64,000 bases of DNA from a virus (IMGVR_UViG_3300033121_001619:62320-126319); one strand, 5' to 3'; shown: positions 10,711 through 58,301, numbered from the stretch's first letter. The notes: generated from the letters alone by a model not told the origin. A program made the numbers and translations.

Positions 10711-11853
10711 ATGTCTCTCAATGCCGTCTTGCCAATTCTTCGCAAGAATCTCCAGATTGATACGTCAGTGGCTCAAGGACCAGAGCGGATCATGACCCTC
10801 GACTGGTTGAGCCACATGAGTCTGATCAAACCTAGGGATAGTTCCACAAGAGACGTGTACGAGAGAATCATGACTCTTTCTTCACGTGCCGAGAAAGAAT
10901 GCCCCCGCGCCGGCAGACATCTCATCGATCTCATCGTCAACGATGGGAGGTCTAGTCTTCCTAGACCACGTGTGATTCGAAATCGAAGTGATTTCGTCGC
11001 CATCGTGAGGGATCACGTTAGATCCTCACGATCTATCGACGTCATCATGCAAATACTCGATGAGTGCGATGACACGACCCGAATAATCATGCGACGGACT
11101 AGTGGAAGCCTGGTTCGAATCGAAACGGAATTGGGCTGCAGGATACAGGGAAACTCGATCACGTCGGACGTCATCGATGACGATGACACGTACGTTGCGT
11201 GCATCGATGGATTCATAGAGACGGTCGCCGAGATACATGACGTCCTGAGCTTCCTGTCTTCCGATGTTTCGGAAAGCGGTAGTCCAAAACCGTGTCTCAT
11301 TCTTGCGAGAGGCGCGTCTCAAGACGTAGCTTCGACTCTTCATGCCAACTTTTTGAATGGGCGTCTTCGGACCGTGTGCTTCATCATTGAGTGGAAACCT
11401 GAGACTGTCAACGGGCTGTCGGACGCATGCATCATTTCTGGCGCCGACATGATATCACTTCTCAGGGGAGACGTGGTATCGTCATTGACACCGACACGTT
11501 TGGGAAGAGTGGCTCACTGTAGGACGACACGCTCCGACGTTGTTTTGACCCCAAGCGATGATCGTCTAGGAATCGTGACGAAGAAGTCGTCGATCTTGGC
11601 CGAAGAGGCGTCAACTTTCGCTCAGGATCGATCATATGCTCTGTCGACTAGGAACATCGTCGTGGACATCCCAGATTCTCACACCCACGACGCCATGGCA
11701 TGCGACGTGGATTTCGGCATCAGATGCTTGCTAGCCGCCATGAGAGGAGACGTCGATCCTCTAGAATCTGCTCGCCGGCAATATGAGACGTATCGTTCGA
11801 TCATAGCGGGGTCCATTTACGTCGGTCAGACAGGTGTTACGTTCGATACATGA
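10711..11853 (+). CDS. Divergent, truncated GroEL/Cpn60-like chaperonin
   Basis: KPCLILARGASQDVASTLHAN and LSDACIISGADMIS...LGRV resemble the GroEL apical domain; no GDGTTT motif. Confidence 0.55.
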   Translation: MSLNAVLPILRKNLQIDTSVAQGPERIMTLDWLSHMSLIKPRDSSTRDVYERIMTLSSRAEKECPRAGRHLIDLIVNDGRSSLPRPRVIRNRSDFVAIVRDHVRSSRSIDVIMQILDECDDTTRIIMRRTSGSLVRIETELGCRIQGNSITSDVIDDDDTYVACIDGFIETVAEIHDVLSFLSSDVSESGSPKPCLILARGASQDVASTLHANFLNGRLRTVCFIIEWKPETVNGLSDACIISGADMISLLRGDVVSSLTPTRLGRVAHCRTTRSDVVLTPSDDRLGIVTKKSSILAEEASTFAQDRSYALSTRNIVVDIPDSHTHDAMACDVDFGIRCLLAAMRGDVDPLESARRQYETYRSIIAGSIYVGQTGVTFDT

Positions 11854-12074
11854 ACAAGATCGATACCACCACCAAGCAAGTCAAGGATGCATTCGAGTAC
11901 GCCAAGTCAAAGACGATATCGATGATCGTCAGCGCCGCACCGCCTCAGACCCCGGACGAGGAGAGGCGTCTCAAGACAGTGATCGATTGCGTCACTAGCG
12001 GAATCGACGAGGCGTTCCTAAAGACCGCACCATCACTCCAGAAGTCGTTTGCTGCGCTGCTCGCGGGGAAGTTA
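11850..12074 (+). CDS. Hypothetical protein (ends at TTA)
   Basis: In-frame TTA 12072-12074 lies 2 nt before the next ATG (12077); standard-code end 12104 overlaps the next gene. Confidence 0.65.
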
Positions 12075-12076
12075 GC

Positions 12077-12538
12077 ATGTCCACAGTCGGACACATCCAC
12101 CTGATCGCGTGCAGGTGTGTCCTTCCTCACTTGAAGTCTTCGAAGGATCCTCCGCCTCACAGATTTCGAGTTTTCACGCGGCTGGTGGACGACGTCCCGG
12201 TCGTGAAATACGCTCAGTGCAACAATTGTGGGCTAGTTCATCGTGTGACTGACTTGGGTAGGTCGGAGATCACAGGAAAGGATGAGGGAAGATCGGTGAA
12301 GACGATCTCCGACATCAAGCCGCTCTTGCCTGAAAAACTCGTGAGCATCCTGGAGTCTAACGATGCTGATCTCGCATCTTACGAGCTATGCGAGCACGTA
12401 CTCAACCATCAGGAGTGGGGAAGATTCGTAGTCCTCTCGTCCGAACCTGACGGATCGATCACTCACGTGAAGATCTTGGAGATGATGGGTCCCAACTTTT
12501 TCCGTGTAGAGACAGAAGAGAGACAAGATACATTCTAG
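12077..12538 (+). CDS. Hypothetical protein with Cys motifs
   Basis: CRC ... CNNCG, possibly Zn-binding. Confidence 0.7.
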   Translation: MSTVGHIHLIACRCVLPHLKSSKDPPPHRFRVFTRLVDDVPVVKYAQCNNCGLVHRVTDLGRSEITGKDEGRSVKTISDIKPLLPEKLVSILESNDADLASYELCEHVLNHQEWGRFVVLSSEPDGSITHVKILEMMGPNFFRVETEERQDTF

Positions 12539-12549
12539 ACGAGGTGTCC

Positions 12550-12783
12550 ATGTCGAAGACAGTCACGAAGAAGCAACTCGAAGACTTGAACAACGACTCA
12601 CTAGCTGCTAGAGAAGTGGTTCGTGAGATCATGAATTTCGGCGTAAATGAGCGTCAGAAAGTCATAATCATCCAAAGCCTCGCCATGACGCTAGAGGACA
12701 ATGAACTCATGCGAGCTTTGCTTGATTGCATCTCTGACATTGCTGGAGACAAGGTCTTCATCTCGAAGATGTTTGGAGAATGA
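12550..12783 (+). CDS. Hypothetical protein
   Basis: GAGGTG RBS before ATG 12550; packed in operon. Confidence 0.65.
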   Translation: MSKTVTKKQLEDLNNDSLAAREVVREIMNFGVNERQKVIIIQSLAMTLEDNELMRALLDCISDIAGDKVFISKMFGE

Positions 12784-12784
12784 C

Positions 12785-13426
12785 ATGGGACGTCAATCAA
12801 ATTCCAGGCTATCGAATTCGTCTCGCCAAGATTCACGACATCCCAGTGCCGATGCCGAATTCGGAGGAATGGCTCTCTCTGCCGGCGATGCTAGCAGGAT
12901 CGTCGTCTTGCATGGCGAGGTCAACGAGACGTCTGTCTCGGTCGTTGTCGCCAATCTCTTGCATATGGCTTCGGTCGACTTGAGTCCCATCTACCTTGTC
13001 ATCTCGACGTACGGTGGATCTGTCGATGAGATGTTCACGTTGTACGACACCATCAAATTCCTCCCATGCCCAGTCCACACGATCGCTTTGGGAAAGGTCA
13101 TGTCAGCTGGAGTGTTGCTGTTGGCTTCTGGGACGAAGGGTAAACGCATGATCGGAAAGTCTGCGAGGATCATGATACACCCGGTTTCGGGCGGAGCGAC
13201 GGGAAATGTGTTTCAGGTCGTTGCAGAAGCCGACGAACACGTCAGACTCCAGGACCAAATGGCGGACGCGATCGCCAATGAGACGAAGATGACACGTCAG
13301 AAGGTCAGGAAGATCATGTCGACCGGTCACGACGTCTACATCACGCCCGATGACGCTGTGAAGTACGGCATCGTGGACAAAATCATCGGAGCTTCCGTCA
13401 GGGACGTCATGAAAAGTTCGGAGTTA
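12785..13426 (+). CDS. clpP: ClpP-family protease proteolytic subunit (ends at TTA; standard-code TAG at 13432)
   Basis: YLVISTYGGSV, GKVMSAG (catalytic Ser), IMIHP (His), AVKYGIVDKII. Confidence 0.9.
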
Positions 13427-13445
13427 GTGTAGTACAACATAGATC

Positions 13446-15074
13446 ATGCCACGTCATGACTATCGACCCTTCTTTCCGTTCGATGACGTGCGTTCGGAGC
13501 AGGATGAGGCGATAAGATTTGCAATCGATGCATTCGAGTCTGGGAAGAAGTACGTAGTTCTCGAGCTTCCGACCGGGATTGGAAAATCAGCCATAGGACT
13601 CACGGTAGCACGCTACATGAATCAGCACGGAGACGACGTGCTTGATGCGGAAGGTCTACCTGTTCAGCGCACGTCATACGTGCTGACAACACAAAAGATA
13701 CTCCAGGATCAGTATGTCAAGGATTTCGGAGAGGCGTCCGGAAGAGACGTCCTGAGATCCATCAAGTCATCGTCGAATTATTCGTGTGGATTCTACTCAG
13801 GATCGACGTGTGCTGACTCGCGAAGACTCATGCGACTCATGTCAAAGGAAGTCGCAGGAACAGAATTCGAGAGACACTGTAAGTCATCGAAATGCCCGTA
13901 CGCGTCTGCCAAGGCAGAGTTCGAGGCGTCTCTGGTGTCGTTGACGAATTTTCCGTTCTTCCTCGCTAGCAAGAATCTGTCTACACGCTCAACGCTGGTG
14001 ATCGATGAGTGTCACAATGCTGAGTCGGAATTGGCTAAATTCGTGGAAGTCTCCTTTTCGGAGAGATTCGCGAAGGACATACTGAAGTGCAAGGTCCCGA
14101 AGATAGACTCGCAGCAAGCAGCCTTCGATTGGGTGTGTGCTTCTTATAAGCGTGCGCTTCTCAAGCATCAAAAGTCGATCAATGAGCGTCTGAAGTCAGG
14201 AGATCGTGGAGAGAACTCCAGACAAGCCGAGATGCTGGAGAAGCACGTGGAGAAAGTCCTGAAGTTCATCCAGATATACGATGAATCTAACTGGGTGATG
14301 AACGTCGTGTACCCGAAAGATGGAGCCAAGAGAGGATTTCGACGCTTCGAATTCAAGCCGGTCGACGTGTCCCACTTCGGTGGAGAACTTTTCGGGAACG
14401 CGGGAAGGATTCTAATGATGTCTGCCACAATAGTGGACAAGGACGTCTTTTGTCGATCGATTGGAATTCCCGTTGACGACGCGGCCTACCTGAGGCTAGC
14501 TTCCCCTTTCTCCGTCGAGAATCGTCCCGTCCTCTTCATGCCCGTGGGATCGATGTCGAAATCGAATATCGACAGAACGCTTCCGAAGATGGTCGAGACC
14601 ATAAAAGAGATCTTGGCGATCCACCCCGACTCAAAGGGAATCATACACACGGCCAATTACAGGATAGCCAAGCACATCCAAGACTCGATACCGTCGGATC
14701 GATTCGTCTTCCACGAAGCTAGCAACAGAGAGGAAGCTCTCAAGTTTCACCTTGCGTCGAAGGATCCGACGGTCATAGTGTCTCCCTCGATGATGGAGGG
14801 AGTCGACTTGTCAGACGACGCGTCACGTTTTCAAGTGATCTGCAAGATACCGTTCCCGTATTTGGGAGACCTCATGGTGAAGCGGCGCATGGAGAGGGAT
14901 TCAACGTGGTATCCTTACGTCACCGCGAAATCGATCATTCAGTCACTCGGAAGATCCATCAGGAACAAGGACGACCACGCGATGTCGTACATCCTCGACA
15001 GCGACTGGACCAACTTCTACGCCAGGAATGAGAGAATGTTCACTGACGACTTTCGTTTGGCACTTCACAGTTTA
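13446..15074 (+). CDS. DinG/Rad3-like SF2 helicase (ends at TTA; standard-code TGA at 15083)
   Basis: ELPTGIGKS, IDECH, MSAT, EGVDL, QSLGRSIR; Cys cluster compatible with Fe-S. Confidence 0.9.
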
Positions 15075-25340: not shown

Positions 25341-27313
25341 CGCAAGGATTCAATACAAAACCCCTCGGTAGCACCTCATCGGGCGTCAAGTCTCAACCGT
25401 CCAAGACGAAATCTTCGTCATCGGTCGCTGGAGTCTCCAAGACGGGAGTGACCGAGTCGTCTCCCATAGACTACGTCGGGACACTTTCGCCCACCAAGAG
25501 CGAGCAATCTGACCCATCCAGGTCCATCGATCTGATCAACATACCCGAGATCAAGTCGATACTGTGCACATTCACGTACAACCACTTCACACGTGACGAG
25601 AGGATAACACCTCCTAGAACTGTGTTCAGTGGAGGTGAGGAGAAACCTCGAGACAAGATAGCGCGATACGTGACGGTGTCGTGGCAGCCTCCTGCTAGAA
25701 AGTCGATGGGATCCTCAACGACGAAGTCGAGGATTGGTACGATATACGAGAACAGGGACGTAATCGTATCAGAAGACGATTCGTTGAACCCGGATTACGT
25801 CGATCACACGTATTCAGACGATGAAGCAATAACGCGTGCCGCGACCGATCTCGAGCTATACGACAAGATGGTGGGTAGAGGCAACGAAAGTCTGACGTCC
25901 ATGGCGGTCGATCGTTTGACCTCCCTTGGGTCTCATGCCGGTGAGAGAGACGTCGCAAAGCTGGATCGATTGTCGAAAACTCTCATGAGAGTCATCGATG
26001 ATCCTCAGGAAAATCTCGGTCTGACGGTGACACCAAGCGACCCCGCCAGAGTCCTAGAATCCGGCGACGACGACGTCACGCTTCACGTCAAGGTCCACGG
26101 ATCCGTCGTCTCGGACGTCTTCGCCAATTCCCACCTGAAGTCGTCCGACTCTTCGTTGGCTTCAATCAGGAGATCTTCGTCGAGAGTCAGATCTGGTACG
26201 TCACGTCCTGAGAGACAAGCCTTGAGCGTAGTGGAGATACTCACTTCTCAGGCAGAGAAGGAGAGGCTAACTCGCCCTGTCGAAATGATCGGTTACATCG
26301 TGTCTCGCTACGTTCAGACGCGCAACGGGTTCGTACCGGACGACGTCTTCTACGTCGAGGATCCATCAACGACGTCGATCATCGATCCTGGCGTCATGTA
26401 CGGGAAGACATACTTGTATGCCGTTCGAGTCGTGTTTGCCGTGGAGATGTTGGCACGCGATGGTGATCGGGTGGTACCAGCGTGCGTGTATGTCTCGTCT
26501 CGCTCCGTGACGAAAGTAATGAAGACCGAGGAGTCCACGCCGCCCCCGGAACCGACGTCGCCCAGATTCACTTACGACTTCATCGATAGACGTCTGACGA
26601 TCCACTGGGACATGCCCGTGAATCCCCAAGACGACGTCAAGCAATTCCAGGTCTTTCGACGAAAGACGATCGGAGAGCCTTTCGAACTCATCTGTCAGTA
26701 TTGCTTCGACGACACAATCGTCTCGGGCGATGCATCGCGTGCACTCACGGGCGAGAGAGTCGATGGCAACTCGTCGACCATGACCGACGAAGAGAGATCC
26801 CATGTGAAATACTCGCCAGTCCCAGTCTTCTCGCACACGGACGACGATTTCTATGTCGATCCTGAGACGCGGGAGTCGTCGAGGTACATCTACGCAATCG
26901 CTAGTGTGGATGCCCACGGTCTGATATCGAATTACTCCGCGCAGGTCGAGGTGTCGTACGATCAGTTCTCCAATCGCTTGACGTCTAAAGTGGTGGCGGA
27001 CTCCGGATCTCCAAGACAGTACCCTAACATGACGCTTGCTTTGGATGCCTTCAAGGACGCCGTCTTCATCGATGGTCCCGGATCTCGAAGGATGGACGTC
27101 TACATGGCACCTGACTTCTTGAAAGTCAAGGATCCTGCGAGGGGAGACGACATACAGGTCGTCGCCGGATCATCGCCCGATAGACCAGCTAGTTTCTACG
27201 TGTTTCAGATGATCAATCTCGACAACCAGAAGACGCAAATCTTGGAGGTCGAGATCAAGGATACCCACCGCCGCACGTCTCCTGTGAAATTGGGAGCCCC
27301 GCTGGATAGGTAG
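25337..27313 (+). CDS. Putative virion protein with FN3-like domains
   Basis: IIDPGVMYGKTYLYAVR, PPPEP, YIYAIASVDAHGLISNYS. Confidence 0.65.
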   Translation: MTQGFNTKPLGSTSSGVKSQPSKTKSSSSVAGVSKTGVTESSPIDYVGTLSPTKSEQSDPSRSIDLINIPEIKSILCTFTYNHFTRDERITPPRTVFSGGEEKPRDKIARYVTVSWQPPARKSMGSSTTKSRIGTIYENRDVIVSEDDSLNPDYVDHTYSDDEAITRAATDLELYDKMVGRGNESLTSMAVDRLTSLGSHAGERDVAKLDRLSKTLMRVIDDPQENLGLTVTPSDPARVLESGDDDVTLHVKVHGSVVSDVFANSHLKSSDSSLASIRRSSSRVRSGTSRPERQALSVVEILTSQAEKERLTRPVEMIGYIVSRYVQTRNGFVPDDVFYVEDPSTTSIIDPGVMYGKTYLYAVRVVFAVEMLARDGDRVVPACVYVSSRSVTKVMKTEESTPPPEPTSPRFTYDFIDRRLTIHWDMPVNPQDDVKQFQVFRRKTIGEPFELICQYCFDDTIVSGDASRALTGERVDGNSSTMTDEERSHVKYSPVPVFSHTDDDFYVDPETRESSRYIYAIASVDAHGLISNYSAQVEVSYDQFSNRLTSKVVADSGSPRQYPNMTLALDAFKDAVFIDGPGSRRMDVYMAPDFLKVKDPARGDDIQVVAGSSPDRPASFYVFQMINLDNQKTQILEVEIKDTHRRTSPVKLGAPLDR

Positions 27314-27327
27314 ACTGGAGGAAAGAC

Positions 27328-28071: not shown

Positions 28072-28086
28072 TAGGATTGGAATCAC

Positions 28087-40778: not shown

Positions 40779-40821
40779 CGACAGTCACGTTCGATATGTA
40801 CAGGTTTCGCCGGAGGACACA

Positions 40822-41196: not shown

Positions 41197-41226
41197 CGCG
41201 GTGTACCATCACCCCGAGGTGTGAGA

Positions 41227-44200
41227 ATGTCAAGCGGTAGGACTTCGAGGTCGCTGTTCCAGCGGCTCACGACCCTTTTCAGGTCGGGAAACGTCGCGAA
41301 GCAGAAGATCAGGACGCTCGACACGTCGGTCGCGTCGCCCGATAAGACGAAGAGCAGCGGCGCCATCATGTTCCAGAAGTCCGCGTCGCCGACGTACGCC
41401 AACATCACGGCGAACGCGTACAACCTCTCCGAGCGCCTGATGAGGTATCAGGATTTTTGCTTTGGGCGAGAGACTCTCGTGTACACGCTCGACGGTGTCT
41501 TTACGATCGAAGAACTGTCGAAGATGTATCCGAAGGGAGAACAGTTCTTCGTTTACTCTTACGATCACGAGAAGAAGACGCCCACGATCGGTACGGCTTT
41601 TTTCCCAAGAGTCGCAAACGGAGGTGCACCTTCGAAAGTCTGCAAGGTGACGTTTGACGACGGAGGTCACGTCTTCCTCACACCCGATCACAGAGTGATT
41701 CTACGTGATGGTACTGCCAAGGAGGTACGTGACCTTCGCGTAGGGGACAGTCTCATGCCGCTATACGTGAAAGACATCACGGGGCATGGATACAACTGGA
41801 TCTACATGCTTGGGAAGAAGACGAACTTCAAGAGCGGGTGGCTTCAGGAGCACGTATTTGTTGCGTCTCATTTCGATAGAGAGCCGCGCTCAGGTGAATG
41901 CGTTCATCACAAGGATTTCAACAGGAAGAACAATCATCCATCCAATCTCGTGGTGATGAATGAATCAGATCACCAAAAATATCACGCCCAGCTCAACAAC
42001 AAGAACAAGCGTGGAATACCGAATCAACGTCATTCTGATTGGATGCGTACCAACGGCAATCGACGACGTGACGTAACCTTTCAGTCGATCGTGTCGGCGT
42101 GTCTTGCTCAGGATACGTTGACGCTGGCAGACATCGTGAGTCACTTCGATACTGATGTCAATGCGATCAAATTGCGTCTCAAAGAAGCCGGATTTCGGAA
42201 TTGGGAAGACTTCGAGAGTAGATTCGATGAAGCTCAGAGAATCGCCACGCACGAAATCGTGGTGAAGGAGACGAGGACTCCCACGGTAGACGAAATCGTC
42301 GAGGTGGCAAAAGTCGCAGAGACTGTCGAAGAAGCTGCCAGTCGCCTATCGTGCACACGCAATGCCATTGGACGACGATTGCAATCGTTGGGTTACAAGA
42401 ATTGGACAGAGTACAAGACTGGAATCCCGTATTCAGGAAAGAAGCGCGGTCCCAAATACGACGGTCCGTCTTTTCAGGTCATCTGTTCCGAATATAAGCC
42501 CGGAATGACCAAGCTGGAATTGGCAGCTGCGTGCGGAACGTCACACAATAAGGTGATGACATGTATTCGTGCGAACGGCTATCACAATTACTCCGATTGG
42601 GTCAATTCATTCAATAACCACAAGGTCAGCTCGATCGAAGAGTGCGGAGAAGACGTCGTCTATACCGTGACTGTTGAAAAACATCACAACCTTGCTGTTG
42701 GTTCGATATCACCAAATGACGATGGTCGTCGCCCACACTCAATGATATTCTGTCATCAGTGCGAGATGGAGTATACGCCCGAGATAGCTAGCGCCCTCGA
42801 CATATACGCGGATGAGGCGTGTCTGTCGGGAGACTCCGTCATACCCCTCTTGAATGGGACGCGTCGAACCATCGCCGACCTATACGCAAACGATGCGAAG
42901 GATTTCTGGGTCTATTCCTACGACCTCGAGAGGAACGCGATCGTACCCGGGAAAGCCACTAGCGTCGTTCGAACGGGGACCAAGCAGCTGTTTCGAATCG
43001 AAATGGATGATGGGACTTTCGTCAGACTGACGGACAACCATCGAGTCCTGTTGAGTTCGGGTGAGTACGTCTTCGTCAGAGACCTGAGGGAGGACGACAG
43101 CATTCGTTCTCTGTACACCTCGACGTCGAGCAAGAAGGTCGGCGATAAGATTGACGGGTACGAAAAAGTCCTGACTAGCGAGGGCTGGAAGTTCACACAT
43201 CGTCTGATTGCCGAATTCGATGATCCGAATTCGTCGGGAATCGTTCATCACGTCGACTTCGACAAGCGCAACAACTCACCGGAGAACCTGAGGTTCATGA
43301 CGTGGAAGGATCACCTAGACCTTCACGGATCTGCCAACGTAGAGAGGTGGAAAGACGACTCCTACTCTCAAAAGATGCGCGACGTATTCCGCGATAGGGC
43401 AAAAAGGTTGCATATGCAACCTGGATTCACGCGACATCTCCTCGCCATGAGAGATGCGAAATTTTCATCGTACGACGCTGATGAACGTCGTCGTCTGTTT
43501 GCACGATCAGGTGCGCACAACGGCATGCATGGCAATGGTTGGAAGATTTCGGGCATCAAAAATGGGCGCTGGGATGAGAGATTCGTAAGAAGGGTGACAC
43601 GCGAACAGATCATCGAATGGATCGAATCGGGAAAATCCAAGCGTCAGGTGTGTGACGAATTGCCAATGCGCCACGACGACATGACGCGCCATCTAAGGCA
43701 GTATGGGATAAAGAAGTGGACGAAGAAAAATGTCATAGATCAGTCTGACGTCATGCAGAAGCTGGGTTCATGGAGAGGACGCCAGCCGTGTGGATTGGAT
43801 CTACGACGTCATTTGAAGAGGGCGTGCGCTGATATCGACATAGACGTCGACGTTGCATATCGTGCATTGAAACTAACGGGATATCGCAATTGGAGCGATT
43901 TTCTGGAGAGAACGAATCACAGGGTGAAATCCATCGTTCCGGACGGTGTCGAGGACGTGTACGATATCACTGTCGATCGTTGGCATAACTTCGCTGTGAC
44001 GGGAAGTCCCATTGCCGATTCCTTCGTGTTCGTTCACAACTGCTCAGTCGACGAGAAGGGCCAGGTGCTGCACGTCTACTCCGACAACCCGAAGATCAAG
44101 GACGCGCTCGAGCATCTCTTCTACGACAACCTGAACGTCGGATTCAACCTCCGGTCGTGGACTCGTAACACGGTCAAGTACGGCGACCTGTGTCTCTACA

Positions 44201-45762
44201 ACGACGTGTCGCCCGAGTACGGCGTCATCAACGCCGTCCCGATCCCCATCAACGAGATCGAGCGCGAGGAGAACTACGACCCCAACGATCCTCTCGCCCA
44301 TCGATTCAGGTGGGTGACCAACGGAAACAGGGTCCTGGAGAACTGGGAGGTGTCGCACTTCCGCCTCCTGGGCAACGACATGTTCCTGCCGTACGGCTCG
44401 TCGGTCATCGAGGCCGCGAGGCGCATCTGGAGGCAGCTCATCCTGGTCGAGGACGCCATGCTCGTCTACAGGATCGTCAGGGCTCCGGAGCGCAGGGTCT
44501 ACTACATCGACGTGGGCAACATACCTCCGGCCGACGTGGAGCTCTACATGGAGGAGCAGAAGAAGCGACTCCGATCGTCTCAAGTCGTCGATAGGACGTC
44601 GTCGAGGGTCGACCTGAGGTACAACCCGCTGTCGATCGACGAGGACATCTTCGTCCCCGTCAGGGGACAGGACACCGGGACGAAGATCGAGACGCTGGCC
44701 GGCGGACAGAACGCCGCGGCGGTCGAGGACGTCGCCTACATCCAGAAGAAGCTGTTCGCGGCCCTCAAGGTGCCACGGGCCTACCTGGGATACGACGAGA
44801 GCCTCAGCTCGAAGTCGACGTTGGCCCAGGAGGACATACGTTTTTCTCGCACCATCAACACCATCCAGCGCACGATGATAGCCGAGCTGAATAAACTGGC
44901 CATCATCCACCTGTACGTCCACGGGTTCGACGACGACGACCTCCAGAACTTCGTCCTCCGGATGTGCAACCCGTCGACCATAGCCCAGCAACAGAAGCTC
45001 GAGCTGTGGCGCGCCAAGTTCGAGTTGGCCGGTTCGGCCCCCGAGGGATACGCCAGCAAGGACTTCGTTCGAAAGGAGCTGTGGGGACTCAACGACGAGC
45101 AGTGCAAGATGATCGACGAGCAGCGTCTGAAGGAGAAGATGGTCGATGCTGCCATCGAAGGGGCCACGTCGGGAGAGTCCGAAGGCGGCGACATGGGCCT
45201 AGGCGACCTGGGAGGCGAAGAGACTGAGGAGCCCGCCGGTGGAGAGGAAGCAGGCGGAGAGGAGCTGACGGCCGGCGACGACGTCGACGAGAAGGACGGC
45301 AAGGACCTCCTGACCGCCGGCGACGACGTCGGAGACGACGACGAGATTCCCATCAAGTTCGACCTCGACGACGTCACGGTCCCCGTGAAGGCTCAGCGTC
45401 AGCTCGACAAGGCCCTGTACGATCGAGCCAGGATCAAGCACGGCGGACCTGCGAAGACTCACATGCCCGATTTCGCGAAGATGACGGGCGCCGGCAGCAA
45501 GCGTGACTCCGACCCGTTCGACAGCGAGTTCCTGTCGTCGTTCGCCAGGAATCAGTTGGGAGAGTCCGAGTCCAGGACGACTCACAGGACGTCGGTCAGC
45601 CTCGACACGGTGCACATGCTTCGTAAGATGGCCGAGTCGCCCAAGTTCGCCAAGAGTCCGGGCAGGTCGATCTCGTCTCCTCGCGTCATCGTCGAGGAGG
45701 TCGAGGACGTCCCTGATCAGCGAGAGTTCGACGAAGTCTACGTCATAGACGAGGACGAGTTA
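41227..45762 (+). CDS. Portal protein, T4 gp20-like, with two inteins (ends at TTA)
   Basis: PEIASALDIYADE, EDAMLVYRIVRAPERRVYYIDVGNIP, TKIETLAGG, KKLFAALKVP; GAGGTG RBS; about 670 aa after splicing. Confidence 0.93.
41458..42759 (+). mobile_element. Portal intein 1 (434 aa), HNH endonuclease, ends His-Gln
   Basis: Starts CFGRET; block B TPDHRV; HHKDFNRKNNHPSNL; block F VYTVTVEKHHNL; ends FCHQ|C. Confidence 0.9.
42820..44040 (+). mobile_element. Portal intein 2 (407 aa), HNH endonuclease
   Basis: Starts CLSGDS; TDNHRV; HHVDFDKRNNSPENL; VYDITVDRWHNF; ends VHN|C. Confidence 0.92.
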
Positions 45763-45811
45763 TGTATCCCAGGGACTCGTGAACCGAGTCCCATCGAGAG
45801 GAATGGTCGAG

Positions 45812-48412
45812 ATGAGACACAACAAGAAGAGAAACGCGCTCCTGGTCTATGAGTTCCTCGTCAAGACGATATCCCGCGGGATAGTCGAGGGAGACGAGAA
45901 GATGAGCGCCACGGCCCTCAAGGTGCTCAAGCGTTTCTATAGACCGGGTACGGAGCTCTACAAGGAGTTCCGCATCATGCGAGCCATCGCCAAGACGACC
46001 GTGAGGTCGGAGCGAGCCGCGTCGACGATCCTCACGGAGGCCCGGAAGGCCTTGTCGGAGATCGACGCCGCGATCGTCGATCGTCAGAAGTCGAACCTGG
46101 TGTCCCAGATCAATCGGACGATCGGCGACCCAGACTTCTACGATCAAGAGGTCCCGGGATACCGTGACTACGCGTCCATTCAGTCGATGGTCAACGAGTG
46201 GAGACACGAGACTCCCGACATCGGACGCATGGGCCAGCACGAGGACGACGTCGTGAAACTTCTCATGACGGAGAAGGTCGATCACGACGTCGAGGTCGAC
46301 ACCGAGGGACTGGGTACGACGAGGCTCGTCATGAAGGTCATGACGAGGAAGCTGAACGAGAAGTACGGGACGGCCTTGACGGAGCACCAGAGGGGGATCG
46401 TTCGAGCGTACGCCTACTCGACGGCCGTGCACTCCGACGACACCCTGAGGATGAAGTTGGACAACGTCAGGGGAGAATTGACGACAGAGATCGACAAGAC
46501 GCTCTCGTCCGACGTCCCGGGAGGTGACTTCGTCGGAAGGAAGCTGGTCGAGGTTCGGTCCATCGTCTCGTCCGACTCCTCGCTAGGATCCGACGACGCG
46601 GTCATGAGGCACATGACGTACGCGAAGTTGCTCAATGAGCTGCGTTCGTCCGACGTCTCGATCGTCACAGAGTCGACCGGTCACAAGCTTCCTCCGCCGG
46701 CTTTCACCGACCCGAGTCTTCTCACCTCCTACGACGTGTTCGAGTACAGCGTCGATCAGGTGAGGGAGTCGAAGGAGAGGAACGCAGGAAAGATCATCCT
46801 GAAGGGAATCCTCCAGAAGGCCGACACCCTCAATCAGAACGGCAGGATATACCCGCTGGCCGTCCTCGAGAGGGAGGTCCGAAACTACCAGAAATTCATA
46901 AGCGAGTCTCGCGCCCTGGGTGAGTGCGTCCCTCCCGGAACTGAGATCTATACACGCGATGGGTGGAAGAGGATCGAGGACATCGCGGAAGACGAGGTGA
47001 TCTTCACTCTCAACACCGAGAGCAATGAGACACAGCTCCAGAGGATCTCTCGCAAGGTCGTCCTTCCCTATGATGGTAAGATGTACCGGTTCCGGAACCA
47101 TCGGTCGTACGACATGTGTCTGACCGCAAACCACAAGATGCTCATGTGGGACAGGAACAACAAGCCATACACGCTCACAGCAGAGGAATTCTACGAGAAG
47201 AACAGCAAGAGAGACTCACGCGTGTCCCATTCGTCTCTTCGAAGGGCCGGTGGGACCTGGCGAGGCGAGGAGCCGGAGTTCTTCACGCAGCTCTCTCCGA
47301 AGTATCCCAATATCGACACGCGACTTTGGGCTGCATTCTTGGGCATCTATCTGGCTGATGGGTGCGCCTCTGGTGTCAACAATCCGGAGATGAGCAAACT
47401 CAAGACGATCCAGATCACGCAGAAAGATCCCGACGTCAAGGCGTGCATCGAAGACCTCCTGTCGAAACTACCCTTCGAGTACCAGGCGACACCTCGTGCT
47501 GATGGTGAGACATTCGATTACAAGATAAAGTGTGACGTCTTGCACTCACACCTATTGCCCCTGGGAAACTCGAGAAGCAAACACGTCCCACTCTACACGA
47601 AGGGGTGGACTTCAGAGATCCAAGGAATCATGCTCGAGTGGATGCTGATGGGTGACGGTCGTCACAGGAAGACTGGCGACGGTGAGATCATACCGGAGTA
47701 CACGACAACCTCGAAAAAGCTTGCAGCGGACGTCGAGGAGATAATGTTCAAGCTGGGTCACGGCGCGACCATCCACGTCTGGGATCGTTCGGAGGATAGG
47801 CCAAGCCCCGATCCGGGAAGGATGATCCTGGGAGAGAATTGCGCCGACATGAACATCGTGTATCAGCACTCCTCGAAGAACATCGGGCTTGACATGAGAT
47901 TCATGAAATCCGAAGTCTTCGATTACAAGGGAGACGTTTTCTGCGTCACCGTGCCGAACGGTACGTGGCTCATGAAGTACAACGGTAAAGTCTGTTGGAC
48001 TCATAACTGCGACCACCCAGATAGTTCCGTCGTGTCCCTCAAGAATGCCTCGCACCTCATCAGGGAGGCCTACATCGACGACGGTGTCGTGTATGGAACT
48101 GTGGAGATCCTCCATCGCGTGCCGTCGGGAGCCATCTTGGCGGGACTGATTGAGTCGGGCGTGAAGTTGGGTATATCCTCGAGAGGAGTGGGATCGACGA
48201 AGAGCAAGGACGGCTATCAAGTCGTCTCCGACGACTTCCAGTTGATATGCTGGGACTTCGTGAGCGAGCCCTCGACACCGGGAGCGTTCATGATACCCGA
48301 GGGCAAGAAGCTGGACGGAACTCGCCTGGCAGAGGAACTCAGCGTCATTTTCAACAAGTCCGATAGGATCGACAGGGTCCTGAACGAGATCCTGTACACC
48401 GGGAGAGTCTGA
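45812..48412 (+). CDS. Prohead protease, T4 gp21-like, with long N-terminal domain and one intein
   Basis: GILQKADTLNQNGRIYP, RALGE|CDHP, LGISSRGVGS, WDFVSEPSTPGA. Confidence 0.9.
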   Translation: MRHNKKRNALLVYEFLVKTISRGIVEGDEKMSATALKVLKRFYRPGTELYKEFRIMRAIAKTTVRSERAASTILTEARKALSEIDAAIVDRQKSNLVSQINRTIGDPDFYDQEVPGYRDYASIQSMVNEWRHETPDIGRMGQHEDDVVKLLMTEKVDHDVEVDTEGLGTTRLVMKVMTRKLNEKYGTALTEHQRGIVRAYAYSTAVHSDDTLRMKLDNVRGELTTEIDKTLSSDVPGGDFVGRKLVEVRSIVSSDSSLGSDDAVMRHMTYAKLLNELRSSDVSIVTESTGHKLPPPAFTDPSLLTSYDVFEYSVDQVRESKERNAGKIILKGILQKADTLNQNGRIYPLAVLEREVRNYQKFISESRALGECVPPGTEIYTRDGWKRIEDIAEDEVIFTLNTESNETQLQRISRKVVLPYDGKMYRFRNHRSYDMCLTANHKMLMWDRNNKPYTLTAEEFYEKNSKRDSRVSHSSLRRAGGTWRGEEPEFFTQLSPKYPNIDTRLWAAFLGIYLADGCASGVNNPEMSKLKTIQITQKDPDVKACIEDLLSKLPFEYQATPRADGETFDYKIKCDVLHSHLLPLGNSRSKHVPLYTKGWTSEIQGIMLEWMLMGDGRHRKTGDGEIIPEYTTTSKKLAADVEEIMFKLGHGATIHVWDRSEDRPSPDPGRMILGENCADMNIVYQHSSKNIGLDMRFMKSEVFDYKGDVFCVTVPNGTWLMKYNGKVCWTHNCDHPDSSVVSLKNASHLIREAYIDDGVVYGTVEILHRVPSGAILAGLIESGVKLGISSRGVGSTKSKDGYQVVSDDFQLICWDFVSEPSTPGAFMIPEGKKLDGTRLAEELSVIFNKSDRIDRVLNEILYTGRV
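46925..48007 (+). mobile_element. Intein (361 aa) with LAGLIDADG homing endonuclease
   Basis: Starts CVPPGTEI; TANHKM; FLGIYLADG and WMLMGDG; VFCVTVPNG; ends THN|C. Confidence 0.92.
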
Positions 48413-48413
48413 G

Positions 48414-48839
48414 ATGAAGATCACGAAATCGTACCTCAAGGACGTAGTGAAGGAGTGTCTCCTGGAGATACTCCAAGATGGTCTGGTTGAGACCCAGAGA
48501 ATGCAGGAGTCGAGGAGAGGTCAACACACGGGTCTAGGGAATAGACCTATTTCGACGTCCTCGCCTAGACCCGTTCCGACTAGACGACAGGCTCCTCCTC
48601 CTCAGCCGTCTCCCGTCAAGTTCACGGGACCCATGGCTGACATCTTCGAGGACACGGCGAGAACTACTCTCGTGGAACAGATGAATGCTGGAGACCCGAT
48701 GTCTCATCGTCCCTCCTTGCAAAATCAAGCCATGCCTCAGGTCGAGCAGATTCGCGGGAATCCCGAGGACATCTTCGGCGACGCAGCCGTCGAGCGATGG
48801 GAGAGCTTGGCGTTCATGGGGCCTCCCGGTCAATCGTGA
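48414..48839 (+). CDS. Hypothetical head-region protein
   Basis: Leader MKITKSYLKDVVKECLLEIL. Confidence 0.7.
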   Translation: MKITKSYLKDVVKECLLEILQDGLVETQRMQESRRGQHTGLGNRPISTSSPRPVPTRRQAPPPQPSPVKFTGPMADIFEDTARTTLVEQMNAGDPMSHRPSLQNQAMPQVEQIRGNPEDIFGDAAVERWESLAFMGPPGQS

Positions 48840-48888
48840 CGACTGTTTTCGCGGGATTTGATACGTAAGGGTCAGAGAGGAAGAAGAG

Positions 48889-49131
48889 ATGAAGCTCACC
48901 GACAGACTCCTGAAGAAGATGATCGAAGAGGAGTTGACCAAGCTCACCGAGACCGATGAAGTCGACGCCGAGGCCGAGGAGGTCGAGGCGGGCGATGAGG
49001 CCTCGACCCTCGAGAAGAAGATCGACTTCATCAAGGCGCTCAAGATCGAGGAGGCACGCCTCAATAAGCGCAAGCGCAAGATCAACGAGGCGCTTCTCAA
49101 GCTGGGTGCTCGTGGAAGGAGCCGTAGATGA
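48889..49131 (+). CDS. Small head-region protein
   Basis: Leader MKLTDRLLKKMIEEELTKLTE. Confidence 0.7.
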   Translation: MKLTDRLLKKMIEEELTKLTETDEVDAEAEEVEAGDEASTLEKKIDFIKALKIEEARLNKRKRKINEALLKLGARGRSRR

Positions 49132-49730
49132 GCGGTCCTGGCAAGGGAAGGTACACGACGTACGTCCCGAAGGCCTCGGCGCGTAACGCTCGTCTCAGCA
49201 AGCTCTTCAACGAGCAGGCCGAGAACGACGCCGGCGTCCTGTACGGTGCTCCTGGGCAGACGAACAACTCGGACGCTGCCAAGGCGGCTGTCGCTCGAGC
49301 CGTCGCGCCTGTCGTGAACGGTGTGGGTGGTCTCATTCCGTCGGACGGACGTCAAGTCGGCGATCCGGACATGTTTCCGGCCGGCGTCAACTTGGCCTAT
49401 GGAGACGCCCCTGACGTGTCGAAGGTCGAGTGGAAGCAGAACTCCGACGCGATTCGCGTCAACATCTACGGCGACGCCGCGGTGGAGGCAGGAGGACCTG
49501 CCAACGCTTACTCTCCCGATCCCACTTCGCCTGGCGCGGGGCCTGCCGGATCGATCAACGTCGATCCGCTCTCCAAGGACGCCGATCCCGGGATATCGAT
49601 CGACGACATGAAGCCAGGATACATCCCGGGCGCCCCCGGCACCGGCACGACCAATCCCTCGGTGACCAGCAAGGGTCTGGGAACGTCACCTTTCGCGAAG
49701 GACTTGATTCCCGGCAAGTCGTCGGTCTTA
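49128..49730 (+). CDS. Gly/Pro-rich hypothetical virion protein (ends at TTA)
   Basis: TTA at 49728 is followed by the AGGAG RBS and ATG 49745 of the next gene. Confidence 0.7.
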
Positions 49731-49744
49731 TCAGGAGAATGTGA

Positions 49745-51499
49745 ATGCCTAAGGAGCTTTACGAGGAGGCGATCGCCGACGTCAGGAGACTGAAGGAGGT
49801 CGCCGAGAACAACGCGAAGAAGGCGGTCATCGAGGCCGTCACTCCACGGATCAGGGAGTTCATCGAAGCCCAGCTCATGGGAGTCGAACAGCCTGTCGAT
49901 GACGAAGACGACATGCTGCTAGACGCGGATCCCGTCGCTCCGGTGACGGAGCCTGGCGACTCGGAGTCGATCGATTCGGTCTCCATGCCCGACGAACAGG
50001 GAAAGGTCACGCTCGATCTTGACGGACTCACTTCGGGTGATCCGGAGGACGAGATAGAGCTCAGTCTCGAGTCGTCCAATTCCCTATCGACGTCCAAGAG
50101 GGACGTCATCGCCGAAGTTGAAGCGAGAGTCAAGGACCTGACACGTGCGACGAATAAGCTCGTCGATGCGACGCGTTCGATCGGACTCACTCGCGGTCTC
50201 AAAGAGGACGTCGAGAAGGTCGTTTCAGAAGTCAGGGATACGTATGGACAAGTTCAAGACAACGTGCGACCCTCCGCAAGGAGGTCCGTTGTCGAGGAAC
50301 GTCTGGAGAGACTTTACAGGACGCTGAATGAGCTTTCGGAGCGAAGAGACATGAAGAACAAGAAGCGGATCGCCGAGGCCGATGTGAATCTCAAGTTGTC
50401 CGGTCTCCCGGACGAAGTCGAGCTAGATGACCTCGGCGTGCAGCTCTCGTCCGACGAGGGTGGAGACGAGGACCTCGATCTCGATGGTGATGAAGGCGGC
50501 GAGGACGCGAGCGGAGACGAGGACCTCGATCTCGACGTCGACCTCGATGACGAGTCCGGCAGCGACGCCGAAGCCGAAGGCGAAGACGACGAGGTCGTCG
50601 AGATCGATGAGTCGGCACTCCGTAGAGAGCTCTCGCGCATCAAGAAGGTTCGCGAGGGAGTCGAGGGGACGAAGCCGGCGTCGTGGGGTCACGGTCCTGG
50701 CGACGTGTCGGACGACTTCGAGGACGAGGACCTGGGTGATCCACTGGAGGACGTCAAGCTCAACGAGGCCGACGACGAGGACGATGAGTCGTGTCTCGAG
50801 GACGCTCCGGCCGGCGATGACGAGAGTGAGACCCAGATGGAGTCTCAGATCAGGCGCGAGAAGCGCTTCGTCGAGGCGGCCAAGCGGCGTCTCGTCAATC
50901 TGAAGGCACGCTACGTGGAGGCTGCTCGCAAGATGAAGCACTTCACCGAAGCGAAGAAGCGTGCTCGCAAGTCGGCCGAGGTGAAGGAAGCCGAGGCGGC
51001 CATGCGCAAGGCCAACAAGATGCAGAAGGAGCTGCAGGAGTCGTTCGGACGAACCCAGGAGCTCCTGCGAGAGTCGGTCTCTCGCGTGAATAAGATGCAA
51101 CGCCTCGTCGAGGCGAAGAAGAGCGGACTCGTGAACGAGGCTCGCAATGGGAAAGCGGATGACTCCCAGAAACTCCGCCAGAAGTTGACGGAAACGAACC
51201 TGTTCAACACGAAGCTCATCTACACGAACAAGCTCCTCCAGAACGAGTCTCTCACCTCGAAGCAGAAGTCTGAGGTGGTGAAGAGGCTCGACGAGGCGAA
51301 GTCGCAGCGTGAGGTGAGGCTAGTCTACGAGGCCCTGGTCAACTCCTTCAAGGCGACGTCCGCACCTCTGCGGGAGTCGACCGACAGGGGTGTTGCTGGT
51401 TCCTCGTCGCGTACAACGAGACCTGCCGGATCGAATGCTCCCGTCAACGAGGGCATCGACACGGATCGCTGGGGTCTCCTGGCTGGCATAACGAAGTGA
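49745..51499 (+). CDS. Prohead core/scaffold protein
   Basis: Very acidic, coiled-coil, directly upstream of the capsid gene; ends RWGLLAGITK. Confidence 0.75.
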   Translation: MPKELYEEAIADVRRLKEVAENNAKKAVIEAVTPRIREFIEAQLMGVEQPVDDEDDMLLDADPVAPVTEPGDSESIDSVSMPDEQGKVTLDLDGLTSGDPEDEIELSLESSNSLSTSKRDVIAEVEARVKDLTRATNKLVDATRSIGLTRGLKEDVEKVVSEVRDTYGQVQDNVRPSARRSVVEERLERLYRTLNELSERRDMKNKKRIAEADVNLKLSGLPDEVELDDLGVQLSSDEGGDEDLDLDGDEGGEDASGDEDLDLDVDLDDESGSDAEAEGEDDEVVEIDESALRRELSRIKKVREGVEGTKPASWGHGPGDVSDDFEDEDLGDPLEDVKLNEADDEDDESCLEDAPAGDDESETQMESQIRREKRFVEAAKRRLVNLKARYVEAARKMKHFTEAKKRARKSAEVKEAEAAMRKANKMQKELQESFGRTQELLRESVSRVNKMQRLVEAKKSGLVNEARNGKADDSQKLRQKLTETNLFNTKLIYTNKLLQNESLTSKQKSEVVKRLDEAKSQREVRLVYEALVNSFKATSAPLRESTDRGVAGSSSRTTRPAGSNAPVNEGIDTDRWGLLAGITK

Positions 51500-55412: not shown

Positions 55413-56357
55413 ATGGTGAGGATGAAGATGAGCAGCCTCCGACGCATGATCGAGTCGGAGGTGAGGAGATCGCTTCGTGAGGACGCGAATCCCGCGAAGA
55501 TCAACGACATGCTCTACCCGAAACGCCTGAGGGCCGTGAAGGATCCTGAGGTGGCGAAGGCCCTCTCCTCCGGCGGGAAGGACGACGGCGTGGTCGACGA
55601 CGACACGGCCGGGACGGGTAGGACGTCGGCTGCCGCCAACACCTTGAAGGCCAGCCAGACGACGATGGACTTCCAGAAATTCGTCGCCATGTCCATCCTC
55701 ATGTTGACTCGACACGGAGCCTTCTCCAGTGGTCCTGGTGGTGACCTAGGCGCCATCGTGTCGTCCGACGGACACATCATGGACGGCCATCACCGCTGGG
55801 CCGCCACTCTCATGGTCGATCCCACCGCCGACGTGGGAGGCATCAAGGTCGACATCCCTGGAGAGAAACTGGTCGGAGTCCTGAACGTGTGGACGGTCGC
55901 GAAGGGTCAGAAGGGCAAACCTTCCACGGCGAACATGAGCGACCTCACGCCTGACGCCGTCGCCGACAAGTTCAAGGAGATGGCCACCAGCGGCATCAGC
56001 GGGATGGACTCGAAGGCCATCGCCGCCGGACTCAGCAAGAACGGATTCGAGTCGATCGACGCCGCCGCCGAGCACGTCAAGAAGAACTGGGAGTCCACGT
56101 CGAAGAACCGAGCGATCAAGGCGTGGATGCCCGAGAAGGTCGACATGCCGGCCATCGAGCCGGAGCAACTCGCCCAGGTCGCGAAGGACATCGCGTCGGG
56201 CGACATGGACATCAATCCTCCCTATTCCGACAAGGTGAAGTCCCTCCTGAAGATGTCGACGAAGAAGGAGAAGTCGCCCCCGGAGAACGCAGGGAGACGA
56301 ATCTCGGGCGATCCTCTCGTGGAACGCTGGCAGCGCCTGGCCGGAATCATCAAGTTA
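55413..56357 (+). CDS. ParB/Srx-like domain protein (ends at TTA)
   Basis: IVSSDGHIMDGHHRWAA; ends RWQRLAGIIK-TTA, matching the scaffold end RWGLLAGITK-TGA. Confidence 0.75.
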
Positions 56358-56757: not shown

Positions 56758-57374
56758 GCGAGACTTACGTCGACGTGAAGCTGACCCCGAGTCAGCTCAT
56801 GCTCGTCGTGGGCATGGTCCATGCCTCCCTGGAACGTGGGGTCAGCAGTGACCTCCTTCGGGGAGACATGGAGGCATTCTACGATCACCTCGTCGAATAC
56901 CTGACGACAACCTCTTCGGAGGCTTCCGAAGAGGAAGCTTCGAACGATGAAGACTCGTCGTCCGTCGAGGAGGAAAACTCCGACGACGAGGATGAGAATG
57001 AGGAGACCGAGGAGGAAGCTTCCGAGGAAGACGAGGAAGAAGACGATTATCGTTCCATCTCGATGGACAATTTTGTGTCGCTTCCATGGTTCACGACCGT
57101 GAATAAGAAGCGCTTCACGTTCAAGTGCCATCATCGAGAGCGTCGTTCTGACGTACTGTCTCTGGAGGACACGAGCGGAAATTGCTACGTCATCAAGCAA
57201 TTGATCATCTCATGTCCCGATCTCGATAGCCTCGAGATGGAGGCACTGATCGAAGAGGACGACGAAGGTCGAACGGATCTCTTCCTCGAGATCCCGCGTG
57301 CGAAGAATTCCAAGTTCTTGAAAGCCATCGAGGACATCATGGAGTTCGACGTCACCTATTCGATCAGACCGTGA
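56754..57374 (+). CDS. Acidic hypothetical protein
   Basis: GTGA coupling; long D/E tract. Confidence 0.65.
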   Translation: MSETYVDVKLTPSQLMLVVGMVHASLERGVSSDLLRGDMEAFYDHLVEYLTTTSSEASEEEASNDEDSSSVEEENSDDEDENEETEEEASEEDEEEDDYRSISMDNFVSLPWFTTVNKKRFTFKCHHRERRSDVLSLEDTSGNCYVIKQLIISCPDLDSLEMEALIEEDDEGRTDLFLEIPRAKNSKFLKAIEDIMEFDVTYSIRP

Positions 57375-57406
57375 TCCTTGACGAAGGGCGCGAGTCCCTT
57401 CGTCTT

Positions 57407-57784
57407 GGGGCATAAATGGCTTCGACGTCGTCGAAGATCGTAGGAGTGCAGGACCGGGTGCACGAGGGTCCCGGATGAAACCCATGTGAAACACGACCGA
57501 CGTCAGCAATGATTCGGCTCCTCTCGCCCTCGCGGCCTTAGGGACGGGTCCCGTCGACCTAGGAAAAGAATAGACGGAAGCAAGGATGTCACGTCTTGAC
57601 GTGAAGGGTGACGCATCATCGGGTGGGTGGTGATGCAACGGCCATGCGACACGAAGGTACGACCAGCCGACACGCGGTGAGAACCTTCTAGGGCGGACGA
57701 TCCCGATGAAAATCGTCCCAATCCTGTGAACGACTCCTACGATCGACGTCGGCGGACCCGGGTTCGATTCCCGGATGCTCCACC
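57407..57784 (+). ncRNA. ssrA: tmRNA
   Basis: 5' GGGGCAT...TTCGAC pairs with 3' ATGCTCC-ACC (G3:U Ala identity pair); T-arm CCGGG-TTCGATT-CCCGG; tag frame 57499-57540 reads DVSNDSAPLALAA then TTA. Confidence 0.93.
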
Positions 57785-57806
57785 GTCTATACTTAGGGTG
57801 AATAGC

Positions 57807-57880
57807 GCGCCCATGTTTCAACGGGAAGAATACTCCTACGCGTGTGAGGAGAAGTCCAGGTTCGAATCCTGGTGGGCGCT
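57807..57880 (+). tRNA. tRNA-like gene with atypical 9-nt anticodon loop; identity not assignable
   Basis: Acceptor GCGCCCA/TGGGCGC; T-arm CCAGG-TTCGAAT-CCTGG; anticodon stem CTCCT/AGGAG around ACGCGTGTG. Confidence 0.7.
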
Positions 57881-57895
57881 CGAAGGAGGAGACAC

Positions 57896-58069
57896 ATGTC
57901 AGCCACGTCGACGATCATACTCGAAGAGATCCGATCACTTGAGGAGGAGCTCAAGACAGCAACGGGAGACGCGCTCGAAGTCAAGAGGACACGTCTAGAG
58001 GAGCTCAAGAGGAATTTCAACTCCGCGACCCAGGCTCTGACGGAGGGTCGCTCCCTCCTCAAGGGATGA
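57896..58069 (+). CDS. Small coiled-coil protein
   Basis: AAGGAGG RBS before ATG 57896. Confidence 0.65.
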   Translation: MSATSTIILEEIRSLEEELKTATGDALEVKRTRLEELKRNFNSATQALTEGRSLLKG

Positions 58070-58070
58070 C

Positions 58071-58301
58071 GTGAGCGACGGTCAACAGGTGGTCGACCTC
58101 ATGCGTCCGCTGAGGTCAGCCGTCGATGGTTTGGCACCCAACATCATAGACGTTTTCGTCTCAGATCCACCTAGCGCAGTAGAGGGAGGAATACCGAGAC
58201 GAATCGTACGTCATCACAAGTACGTCAACGTCGGGATACTCTCTAGGGAGCTTCAGGAGAAGATCCTAGCCGCCATTCACTTCAATTCGTCTGGTTTTTT
58301 A
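58071..58301 (+). CDS. Hypothetical protein (ends at TTA)
   Basis: In-frame TTA at 58299; standard-code end 58361 also gives a plausible ATGA overlap, so this end is less certain. Confidence 0.55.

Follow-up and report, generated by a model that had tools for sequence, protein, structure and literature searches.

Reassignment of the leucine codon UUA to termination is known from organelles: UUA is a stop in labyrinthulean (Thraustochytrium) mitochondria (NCBI table 23) and, together with UCA, in peDinoflagellate plastids, and both UUA and UUG are stops in the mitochondria of Marsupiomonadales and Pseudoscourfieldia (PMC12574857). Organellar use of UUA as a stop has been linked to replacement of the Ser of the SPF motif of release factor RF2 by Ala, Gly or Cys, or to a reshaped RF1 (PMC12574857), and the same source cites termination at AGA and AGG in vertebrate mitochondria by a release-factor paralogue, mtRF1 (PMC12574857). 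Here we examine a linear virus contig of 126,319 bases from IMG/VR (IMGVR_UViG_3300033121_001619), of which bases 62,320–126,319, a stretch of 64,000 nucleotides, form the window (coordinates are those of the window unless given as contig positions). An earlier note on this window had proposed that TTA (UUA) serves the phage as a fourth stop codon. Given the absence of TTA within genes, its occurrence where relatives have their stops and its position at the end of the tag encoded by the transfer-messenger RNA (tmRNA) of the phage, we consider it very probable that UUA ends translation in this phage, alongside UGA, UAG and UAA. That note had cited Thraustochytrium mitochondria as the precedent, which is correct, but further organelles share the change (PMC12574857); its statement that no sense-to-stop reassignment was known in a phage or bacterium accords with our full-text literature searches, which found no case of UUA as a stop in either. 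The change of UUA from Leu to stop has so far been published only for mitochondria and plastids, and what we describe would place this reassignment in an entirely different setting.

The phage shares with the recoded organelles the direction of the change, the absence of the codon within genes and its presence where homologues stop, as well as the continued use of the standard stops and a translation apparatus of bacterial type. It differs from them in scale, as organelles hold a few dozen genes whereas the change is seen here in a bacterial virus whose genome well exceeds 126 kb, and in the fate of UCA and UUG, which are also stops in some organelles but remain sense codons in the phage (TCA and TTG, with 434 and 527 uses, respectively). 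Vertebrate mitochondria likewise employ sense codons as stops and show that a specialised class-I release factor can evolve; however, the codons are different ones (AGA and AGG) and mtRF1 is a paralogue, whereas no paralogue was identified for this phage. Phages in which TAG has been recoded to Gln or TGA to Trp are comparable in having a code unlike that of their relatives and translation parts of their own (in this phage, a suppressor-type tRNA, the tmRNA and a PTH2-like gene), but their change runs from stop to sense, opposite to the sense-to-stop change considered here, and they carry standard stops inside genes, whereas this phage shows none in its conserved genes. In Streptomyces, TTA is a rare, regulated Leu codon read by the bldA tRNA. 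As in the phage, it is almost absent from genes, its decoding there hanging on a single tRNA; yet it is still Leu, still lies inside genes and is rare through a GC content of at least 70%, whereas the phage, at 55% GC, uses other A/T-rich codons freely and has TTA at stop positions.

The contig derives from a large, uncultured, T4-like phage that encodes a T4-type large terminase, an intein-bearing T4-type portal, a prohead protease with an intein, a gp23-type capsid protein, a ClpP and a helicase, and CheckV estimates it to be 38% complete. In IMG/VR and a collection of 5.8 billion proteins, the closest phages are 55–66% identical in the large terminase (TerL) and at most 62% identical in a tail protein; as the nearest phages are only distantly alike, the lineage sits on a long branch. 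The closest relatives (50–66% identity), including those from the same sample type, read TTA as ordinary Leu, so the change is lineage-specific.

With TTA taken as a fourth stop codon, greedy tiling of the whole contig gave 132 genes that cover 92% of it and comprise 38,763 codons, among which there is no internal TTA against approximately 296 expected from position-specific base frequencies. In the same genes, CTA, ATA and TTG occur at 1.00, 1.11 and 0.87 times expectation. The earlier claims that gene bodies lack TTA and that TTG, CTA and ATA are used freely thus hold for the whole contig; the estimate of roughly 19,000 codons given with them fits the entire window (20,078 codons) but not the interval 11850–58301 to which it was applied, which holds at most about 15,500. 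Sense-strand TTA triplets within the tiled genes number 21 in frame 0, 57 in frame 1 and 186 in frame 2, and all 21 of those in frame 0 are gene ends. When frames of at least 150 codons are called with the standard code instead, real genes in both halves of the contig have in-frame TTA only near the 3′ end or 5′ of the start, the internal TTAs of that list being confined to overlapping, off-frame or antisense frames. Base composition does not account for this pattern, as the earlier note had argued, because a relative of equal GC content has 15 TTA codons spread through its genes in 5,015 codons. At 1,372 aligned positions at which a relative has TTA, the phage has Leu 515 times, encoded as CTC, CTG, TTG, CTA or CTT, and its TTAs in the frame of a real gene are confined to gene ends and to sequence 5′ of the start.

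The same holds beyond the contig as assembled. Approximately 25 kb of flanking sequence recovered from the contigs of other samples (about 19 kb to the right and 6 kb to the left) contains no internal TTA, and none is present in any strain variant across 704 variable positions; one strain even converts a CTA codon to TTG through two changes, and not to TTA. To the right lie a gp13-like gene and large structural genes, for each of which the stop is TGA or TAG; the left flank carries small open reading frames (ORFs) and one more TTA-ended gene. In the tiling with TAA, TAG and TGA as stops, no standard stop was seen in frame inside conserved genes, which are full-length; the sole candidate is the fourth codon of the PTH2-like gene, a TAA that may mark no more than a short upstream ORF. 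TTA has been purged from gene bodies and survives only at ancestral stop positions and at the stop of the tmRNA tag. Selection removes it from gene interiors, and at gene ends it is either tolerated or favoured.

All 13 positions that the earlier note listed as gene-terminal are indeed TTA codons in the reading frame of the gene they close, all on the plus strand, and each gene was read through its TTA and aligned to 118 related loci, the relatives being 35–75% identical. For the gene at 29361–31835 (824 amino acids (aa); TTA 31833–31835), the stop lies exactly at the TTA in 14 of 14 homologues; it has 1,093 homologues in all, and among the 120 listed nearly all are 805–857 aa long and cover 88–91% of the 901-aa frame given by the standard code. 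Read as Leu, this TTA would add 77 codons and a 232-base overlap with the next gene. The gene upstream (28087–29361; TTA 29359–29361) has TGA, TAG or TAA exactly at the TTA in 10 of 10 homologues (...FRVRLDF stop versus ...FRVRTDY TTA), and in both genes the TTA overlaps the ATG of the next (TTATG). In the 200-aa gene at 49128–49730 (TTA 49728–49730), with AGGAG and an ATG at 49745 downstream, 9 of 10 homologues stop exactly at the TTA (...PGKSSV stop). The small gene at 38373–38783 is closed by two TTAs (38781 and 38787; TTA TAC TTA, 38781–38789), of which the first, at residue 137, coincides with the homologue stop in 9 of the 14 loci listed; of the strain contigs, 10 span this place and each retains both TTAs. 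The same result comes from the minus strand, where a gene beyond the window (contig 49277–50740) ends in TTA at the stop of its homologues in about 28 of 36 matched loci.

The genes for terminase and portal are consistent with this picture. TTA 40776–40778 closes the TerL gene (start 38994 or 39189; PF03237), to which T4 gp17 aligns up to residue 536, and in a multiple alignment relatives ending in ...DFSWLFK stop match the phage end ...DYRWLLT TTA; with TTA as Leu, the protein would gain 138 codons and run across the next gene. That next gene (40822–41196; 124 aa) is closed by TTA 41194–41196, which keeps it apart from the portal gene, encoded in the same frame, and a sequence resembling a ribosome-binding site (GAGGTG) and a start follow 3′ of the TTA. 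Under the standard code the two form one 1,676-aa product, as in the public gene calls; in relatives, the portal match starts past this TTA and the counterpart of the small protein is a distinct stretch that has its own stop. The intein-bearing portal gene itself (41221–45762; Portal_T4, E = 2.5e-67) is closed by TTA 45760–45762, the next gene starting at 45779, and portal homologues stop 2–6 codons past the TTA, after the same acidic tail (...IDEDE). The earlier statement that a TTA stop removes long overlaps and one gene fusion is borne out by the terminase gene, the 124-aa gene and the 824-aa gene. Wherever the comparison discriminates (that is, at 28087–29361, 29361–31835, 49128–49730, 38373–38783, TerL and the minus-strand gene), homologue stops align with the TTA, and homologue conservation past a TTA was found in no case. 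The offsets to homologue stops are spread no differently for genes ending in TGA or TAG than for those ending in TTA, indicating that TTA behaves like any other stop.

The remaining sites are all in frame, but four of them are not decisive on their own, as they lie zero to five codons before a standard stop. TTA 13424–13426 closes a ClpP-like gene (12701–13426; PF00574, E = 5e-41) one codon before TAG (TTA GTG TAG); TTA 15072–15074 closes a helicase gene (13446–15074; Helicase_C_2 and ResIII matches) two codons before TGA; TTA 28069–28071 closes the gene at 27328–28071 directly before TAG, with the TGA of the one homologue available (1 of 1) in alignment; and TTA 56355–56357 closes a 314-aa gene (55413–56357) five codons before TGA. 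The last is kept in a 98%-identical strain, as is TTA 58299–58301, which closes a 76-aa gene (58071–58301). TTA 12072–12074 closes a 74-aa gene (11850–12074) and is followed by an ATG at 12077 (TTA GC ATG).

An independent test is provided by the tmRNA. A full-length match to Rfam RF00023 (64.1 bits versus a gathering score of 47) places a tmRNA gene at 57407–57785 on the plus strand, where ARAGORN reported no tmRNA in the window. Its tag frame (57499–57540, plus strand) reads DVSNDSAPLALAA and then TTA at 57538–57540, such that the tag ends ...PLALAA, with the next standard stop 11 codons further on. The tmRNAs at the matching place in two related phages have tags that end ...DDVRLAA TGA, and when the phage tag is aligned with theirs (CCTCGCGGCCTTA versus CCTCGCGGCCTGA) the TTA of the former and the TGA of the latter share columns. 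If TTA were Leu, the tag would be 11 codons longer and its ...LAA end would be lost. A tmRNA tag needs a terminal ...LAA to act as a degradation signal. As the tag must end at ...LAA, this site favours real termination over a stall.

Across the whole contig, genes end in TGA 84 times, TTA 21 times, TAG 14 times and TAA 12 times, so that TTA closes about one gene in six. In the window the tally is 32 TGA, 12 TTA, 6 TAG and 5 TAA, the site at 38781 being a thirteenth TTA whose gene was dropped by the tiling; the previous hand count of TAG and TAA (6 and 5) is reproduced, whereas its 35 TGA becomes 32. The base after the TTA stop is C in 10, T in 6, G in 5 and A in none of the 21 cases on the contig, in agreement with the earlier observation of G, C or T only; the tetranucleotide TTAA is under-represented on the contig (13 versus approximately 30 expected). 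Counted to the next standard stop in the same frame, the median is 19 codons from a TTA end and 22 from a TGA end, and these similar values indicate that TTA is not specially backed up. The TTATG overlap occurs twice, and sequences resembling ribosome-binding sites lie 3′ of TTA.

TTA and TAA are unevenly distributed, with TAA stops in 8 of 38 minus-strand genes and TTA stops in 18 of 93 plus-strand genes; the right plus-strand arm (43 genes) has 12 TTA and 1 TAA, versus 3 TTA and 8 TAA in the minus-strand genes. A reading of this imbalance as early versus late expression found no support, as the minus-strand block, which encodes an fn3 protein, a sugar-synthesis cluster and large proteins of no known kind, is not clearly early. 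The contig encodes an ochre-suppressor-type tRNA (anticodon UUA; contig 14662–14734; ARAGORN), a 73-base cloverleaf with U33, A37 and A73 and a C–A mismatch atop the anticodon stem, the anticodon of which reads UAA and not UAG or UGA, and which has no close match among the 56 tRNAs of a relative. The scarcity of TAA in the right plus-strand arm, together with this tRNA, hints that UAA is a poor stop for the phage, and our guess is that the tRNA makes UAA poorer and thereby favours TTA.

The region 38000–46000 of the window is present in 20 public runs from 10 studies (wastewater, aquaculture and freshwater), four RNA libraries among them, and contigs of four runs span 27000–46900. Over 13.7 kb that include sites 40776–49728, an independent assembly has 100% identity. 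In nineteen strain contigs (98.7–99.6% identical), every covered TTA among 28069, 29359, 31833, 38781 and 38787 is retained, and a strain of 97.6–98% identity retains TTA at 56355, 57538 and 58299 and at one site in the other half of the contig. For a contig from an RNA library, which may contain DNA, the listed differences leave 28069, 29359 and 31833 untouched. Some strains carry a mobile insertion of 1,496 bases (46% GC) at 29357|29358, between two tail-protein genes (locus L082:8502–9997). Its two ORFs, of about 221 and 110 aa, also terminate in TTA, and one reuses in frame the TTATG of the next gene; the gene 5′ of the insertion is extended by 10 codons in these strains and ends at TGA. 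Many strains also have 56 bases at 32208–32265 swapped for 1,726 bases (locus L082:12849–14574) that encode a 306-aa ORF and a Methyltransf_21 gene. Beside this swap, only the upstream edge of a 132-aa gene (32062–32149) is rich in differences, and this in the RNA-library contig X2 alone, and 3′ of 32265 the strains remain approximately 99% identical.

In view of these data, it is hardly credible that the TTA ends arose from TAA or TGA through a sequencing, assembly or base-modification artefact or through RNA editing. The excess of TAA on minus-strand genes and of TTA on plus-strand genes resembles a strand-specific conversion at first sight; however, out-of-frame TTA and TAA occur 160 and 152 times on the plus strand of the window, a conversion blind to frame cannot hit in-frame stops only, and the minus-strand gene at contig 49277–50740 also ends in TTA where its homologues stop. 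As out-of-frame TTA and TAA are equally frequent and TTA ends lie on both strands, frame-blind conversion of TAA to TTA is excluded, and the misreading of TAA as TTA on the plus strand was rejected on the same grounds. Moreover, assemblies from many studies and years show the same bases, and TTA rather than TAA or TGA stands in the independent assemblies. It is also very improbable that TTA is still Leu and merely very rare, such that the C-terminal extensions, the long overlaps and the fusion of the 124-aa protein to the portal are real and TerL reads through as ...DYRWLLTLRQSR. The standard code does leave frames open past every TTA, and public gene callers annotate them so, but the extensions are conserved in no homologue while homologue stops fall on the TTA, every one of the 21 in-frame TTAs is terminal, with none of the roughly 296 expected internal ones, and the tmRNA tag would lose its ...LAA end.

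A third possibility is that UUA is an unassigned (‘hungry’) codon at which the ribosome stalls, the chain being freed by an ArfB-type factor or by drop-off followed by peptidyl-tRNA hydrolase, a route that the PTH2-like protein would aid. This accounts equally well for the codon counts and homologue alignments, the contig yielded no release factor and the PTH2-like gene adjoins the suppressor tRNA, yet we regard this explanation as distinctly unlikely. Drop-off is rare once a chain is long, and a ribosome stalled on an intact mRNA is dealt with by tagging and degradation; in this phage, the frames closed by TTA include those of the structural proteins produced in greatest quantity (terminase, portal and tail) as well as the tmRNA tag, where a stall would summon tmRNA endlessly. 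In addition, the TTATG overlaps resemble ordinary stop–start coupling, and the PTH2-like family is common in phages with a normal code. Termination by a class-I release factor of altered specificity appears to be the best-supported mechanism for UUA as a stop. In this mechanism, a ribosome arriving at UUA would meet no competing leucine tRNA, and a class-I release factor with widened reading of the second base would hydrolyse the peptidyl-tRNA there, along the lines proposed for organelles; such a factor could come from the host or from a part of the phage genome that is not on the contig. A more elaborate version, which we put forward as speculative and unlikely, would have the phage tRNA(UUA) weaken UAA while a candidate factor specified by the phage makes UUA a stop, such that the two codons partly swap roles late in infection, and host genes and competing phages are mistranslated while the own genes and the tmRNA of the phage are translated correctly.

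Several observations weigh against UUA as a true stop, and most of them come from the search for the component that would read it. The RF-1 and PCRF domains (PF00472 and PF03462) have no match in the contig; the earlier note had found neither a release factor nor tRNA-Leu(UAA) in the window, and the rest of the contig is likewise without them, a tRNA scan of the whole contig yielding no tRNA-Leu(UAA). The approximately 25 kb of flanks contain no tRNA gene beyond one already known, no match to the short release factor of a relative, and no such factor among the Pfam hits on record. This relative (G001; complete, 369 kb, normal code), which has 56 tRNAs including tRNA-Leu(UAA) and one with anticodon CUA, encodes a 196-aa RF1-type factor with PPT and GGQ motifs beside a SLOG-domain gene (L171:1450–2037), and at the syntenic locus the phage has other genes (that is, a 135-aa ORF, the PTH2-like gene, the tRNA(UUA), an 83-aa ORF and a 144-aa ORF, the last with no family match and a poor model). 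Furthermore, 7 of the 21 TTA ends lie at most five codons 5′ of a standard stop, which is non-deciding alone. A final point concerns potential hosts. We scanned the RF2 motif HRLVRx(A/G)PFD over 185,579 species, which gave 46 hits with approximately 35 expected by chance; true RF2 with GPF was found in four Armatimonadia genomes and one Pseudomonas, and with APF in one Oscillospiraceae genome. The four Armatimonadia genomes have GPF where nearly all bacteria have SPF, but 300 kb of one of them has TTA inside genes (37 in 78,110 codons), indicating that GPF alone does not predict UUA as a stop. In these 300 kb, 192 ORFs end in TAG (114), TGA (66) or TAA (12), TAG being the commonest, and the tmRNA tags of two other Armatimonadia genomes end in TAA and TAG; given the internal TTA and these tag ends, the four genomes are unsupported as those of hosts.

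The short RF1-type family to which the factor of the relative belongs (approximately 195 residues) is common in large phages, with 2,389 members at 90% clustering; its members lack domain 1 and carry GGHRWQR-P(P/E/L)(T/N)-E and GGQ. Variants of its motif (PPT, PPN, PET and others) do not track with low TTA use across 80 IMG/VR loci that have this factor. The tRNA complement of the contig consists of the tRNA(UUA), a tRNA-Thr (anticodon CGU; 57807–57881, plus strand; ARAGORN), which is the sole tRNA in the window, and the tmRNA. The PTH2-like gene and, directly after it, the tRNA(UUA) lie at contig 14312–14734, approximately 47.6 kb 5′ of the window; the Pfam match of the former is weak (E = 0.08), and its nearest 30 protein-atlas clusters are all PTH2-type viral families.

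Other features of the contig are recorded here in their own right. Inteins containing HNH domains interrupt the portal gene (41221–45762), and one containing a LAGLIDADG domain interrupts the gene for the prohead protease (45779–48412); in the contigs of two runs, 793 bases of the portal gene (43127–43921) are missing and 43 others stand in their place, an intein-size polymorphism between strains. A sugar-synthesis cluster, all on the minus strand, extends over contig 56.5–62.8 kb (including window 1–2445) and encodes Polysacc_synt_2 (PseB-like), a cytidylyltransferase, a GFO/IDH/MocA-type oxidoreductase, a formyltransferase and a PIG-L deacetylase, with a glycosyltransferase nearby (contig 53.4–54.6 kb), a gene set that points to synthesis of a nonulosonic-acid-type sugar by the phage. 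In the terminal gene of the contig (62918–64000; contig 125237–126319) there are internal repeats of 75–83% mutual identity, and the assemblies of several samples break or diverge there; the contig probably ends where it does because of these repeats.

In summary, the published code changes that we found for phages and free-living bacteria run from stop to sense or swap one amino acid for another. The phage described here is frequent in wastewater and freshwater data of 10 studies, and standard gene callers mis-annotate it, producing a 1,676-residue portal fusion and a terminase 138 residues too long and missing the tmRNA. If true, the termination at UUA that we propose would be the first sense-to-stop change outside organelles, and would imply a novel way of releasing the chain at this codon, provided by either phage or host.

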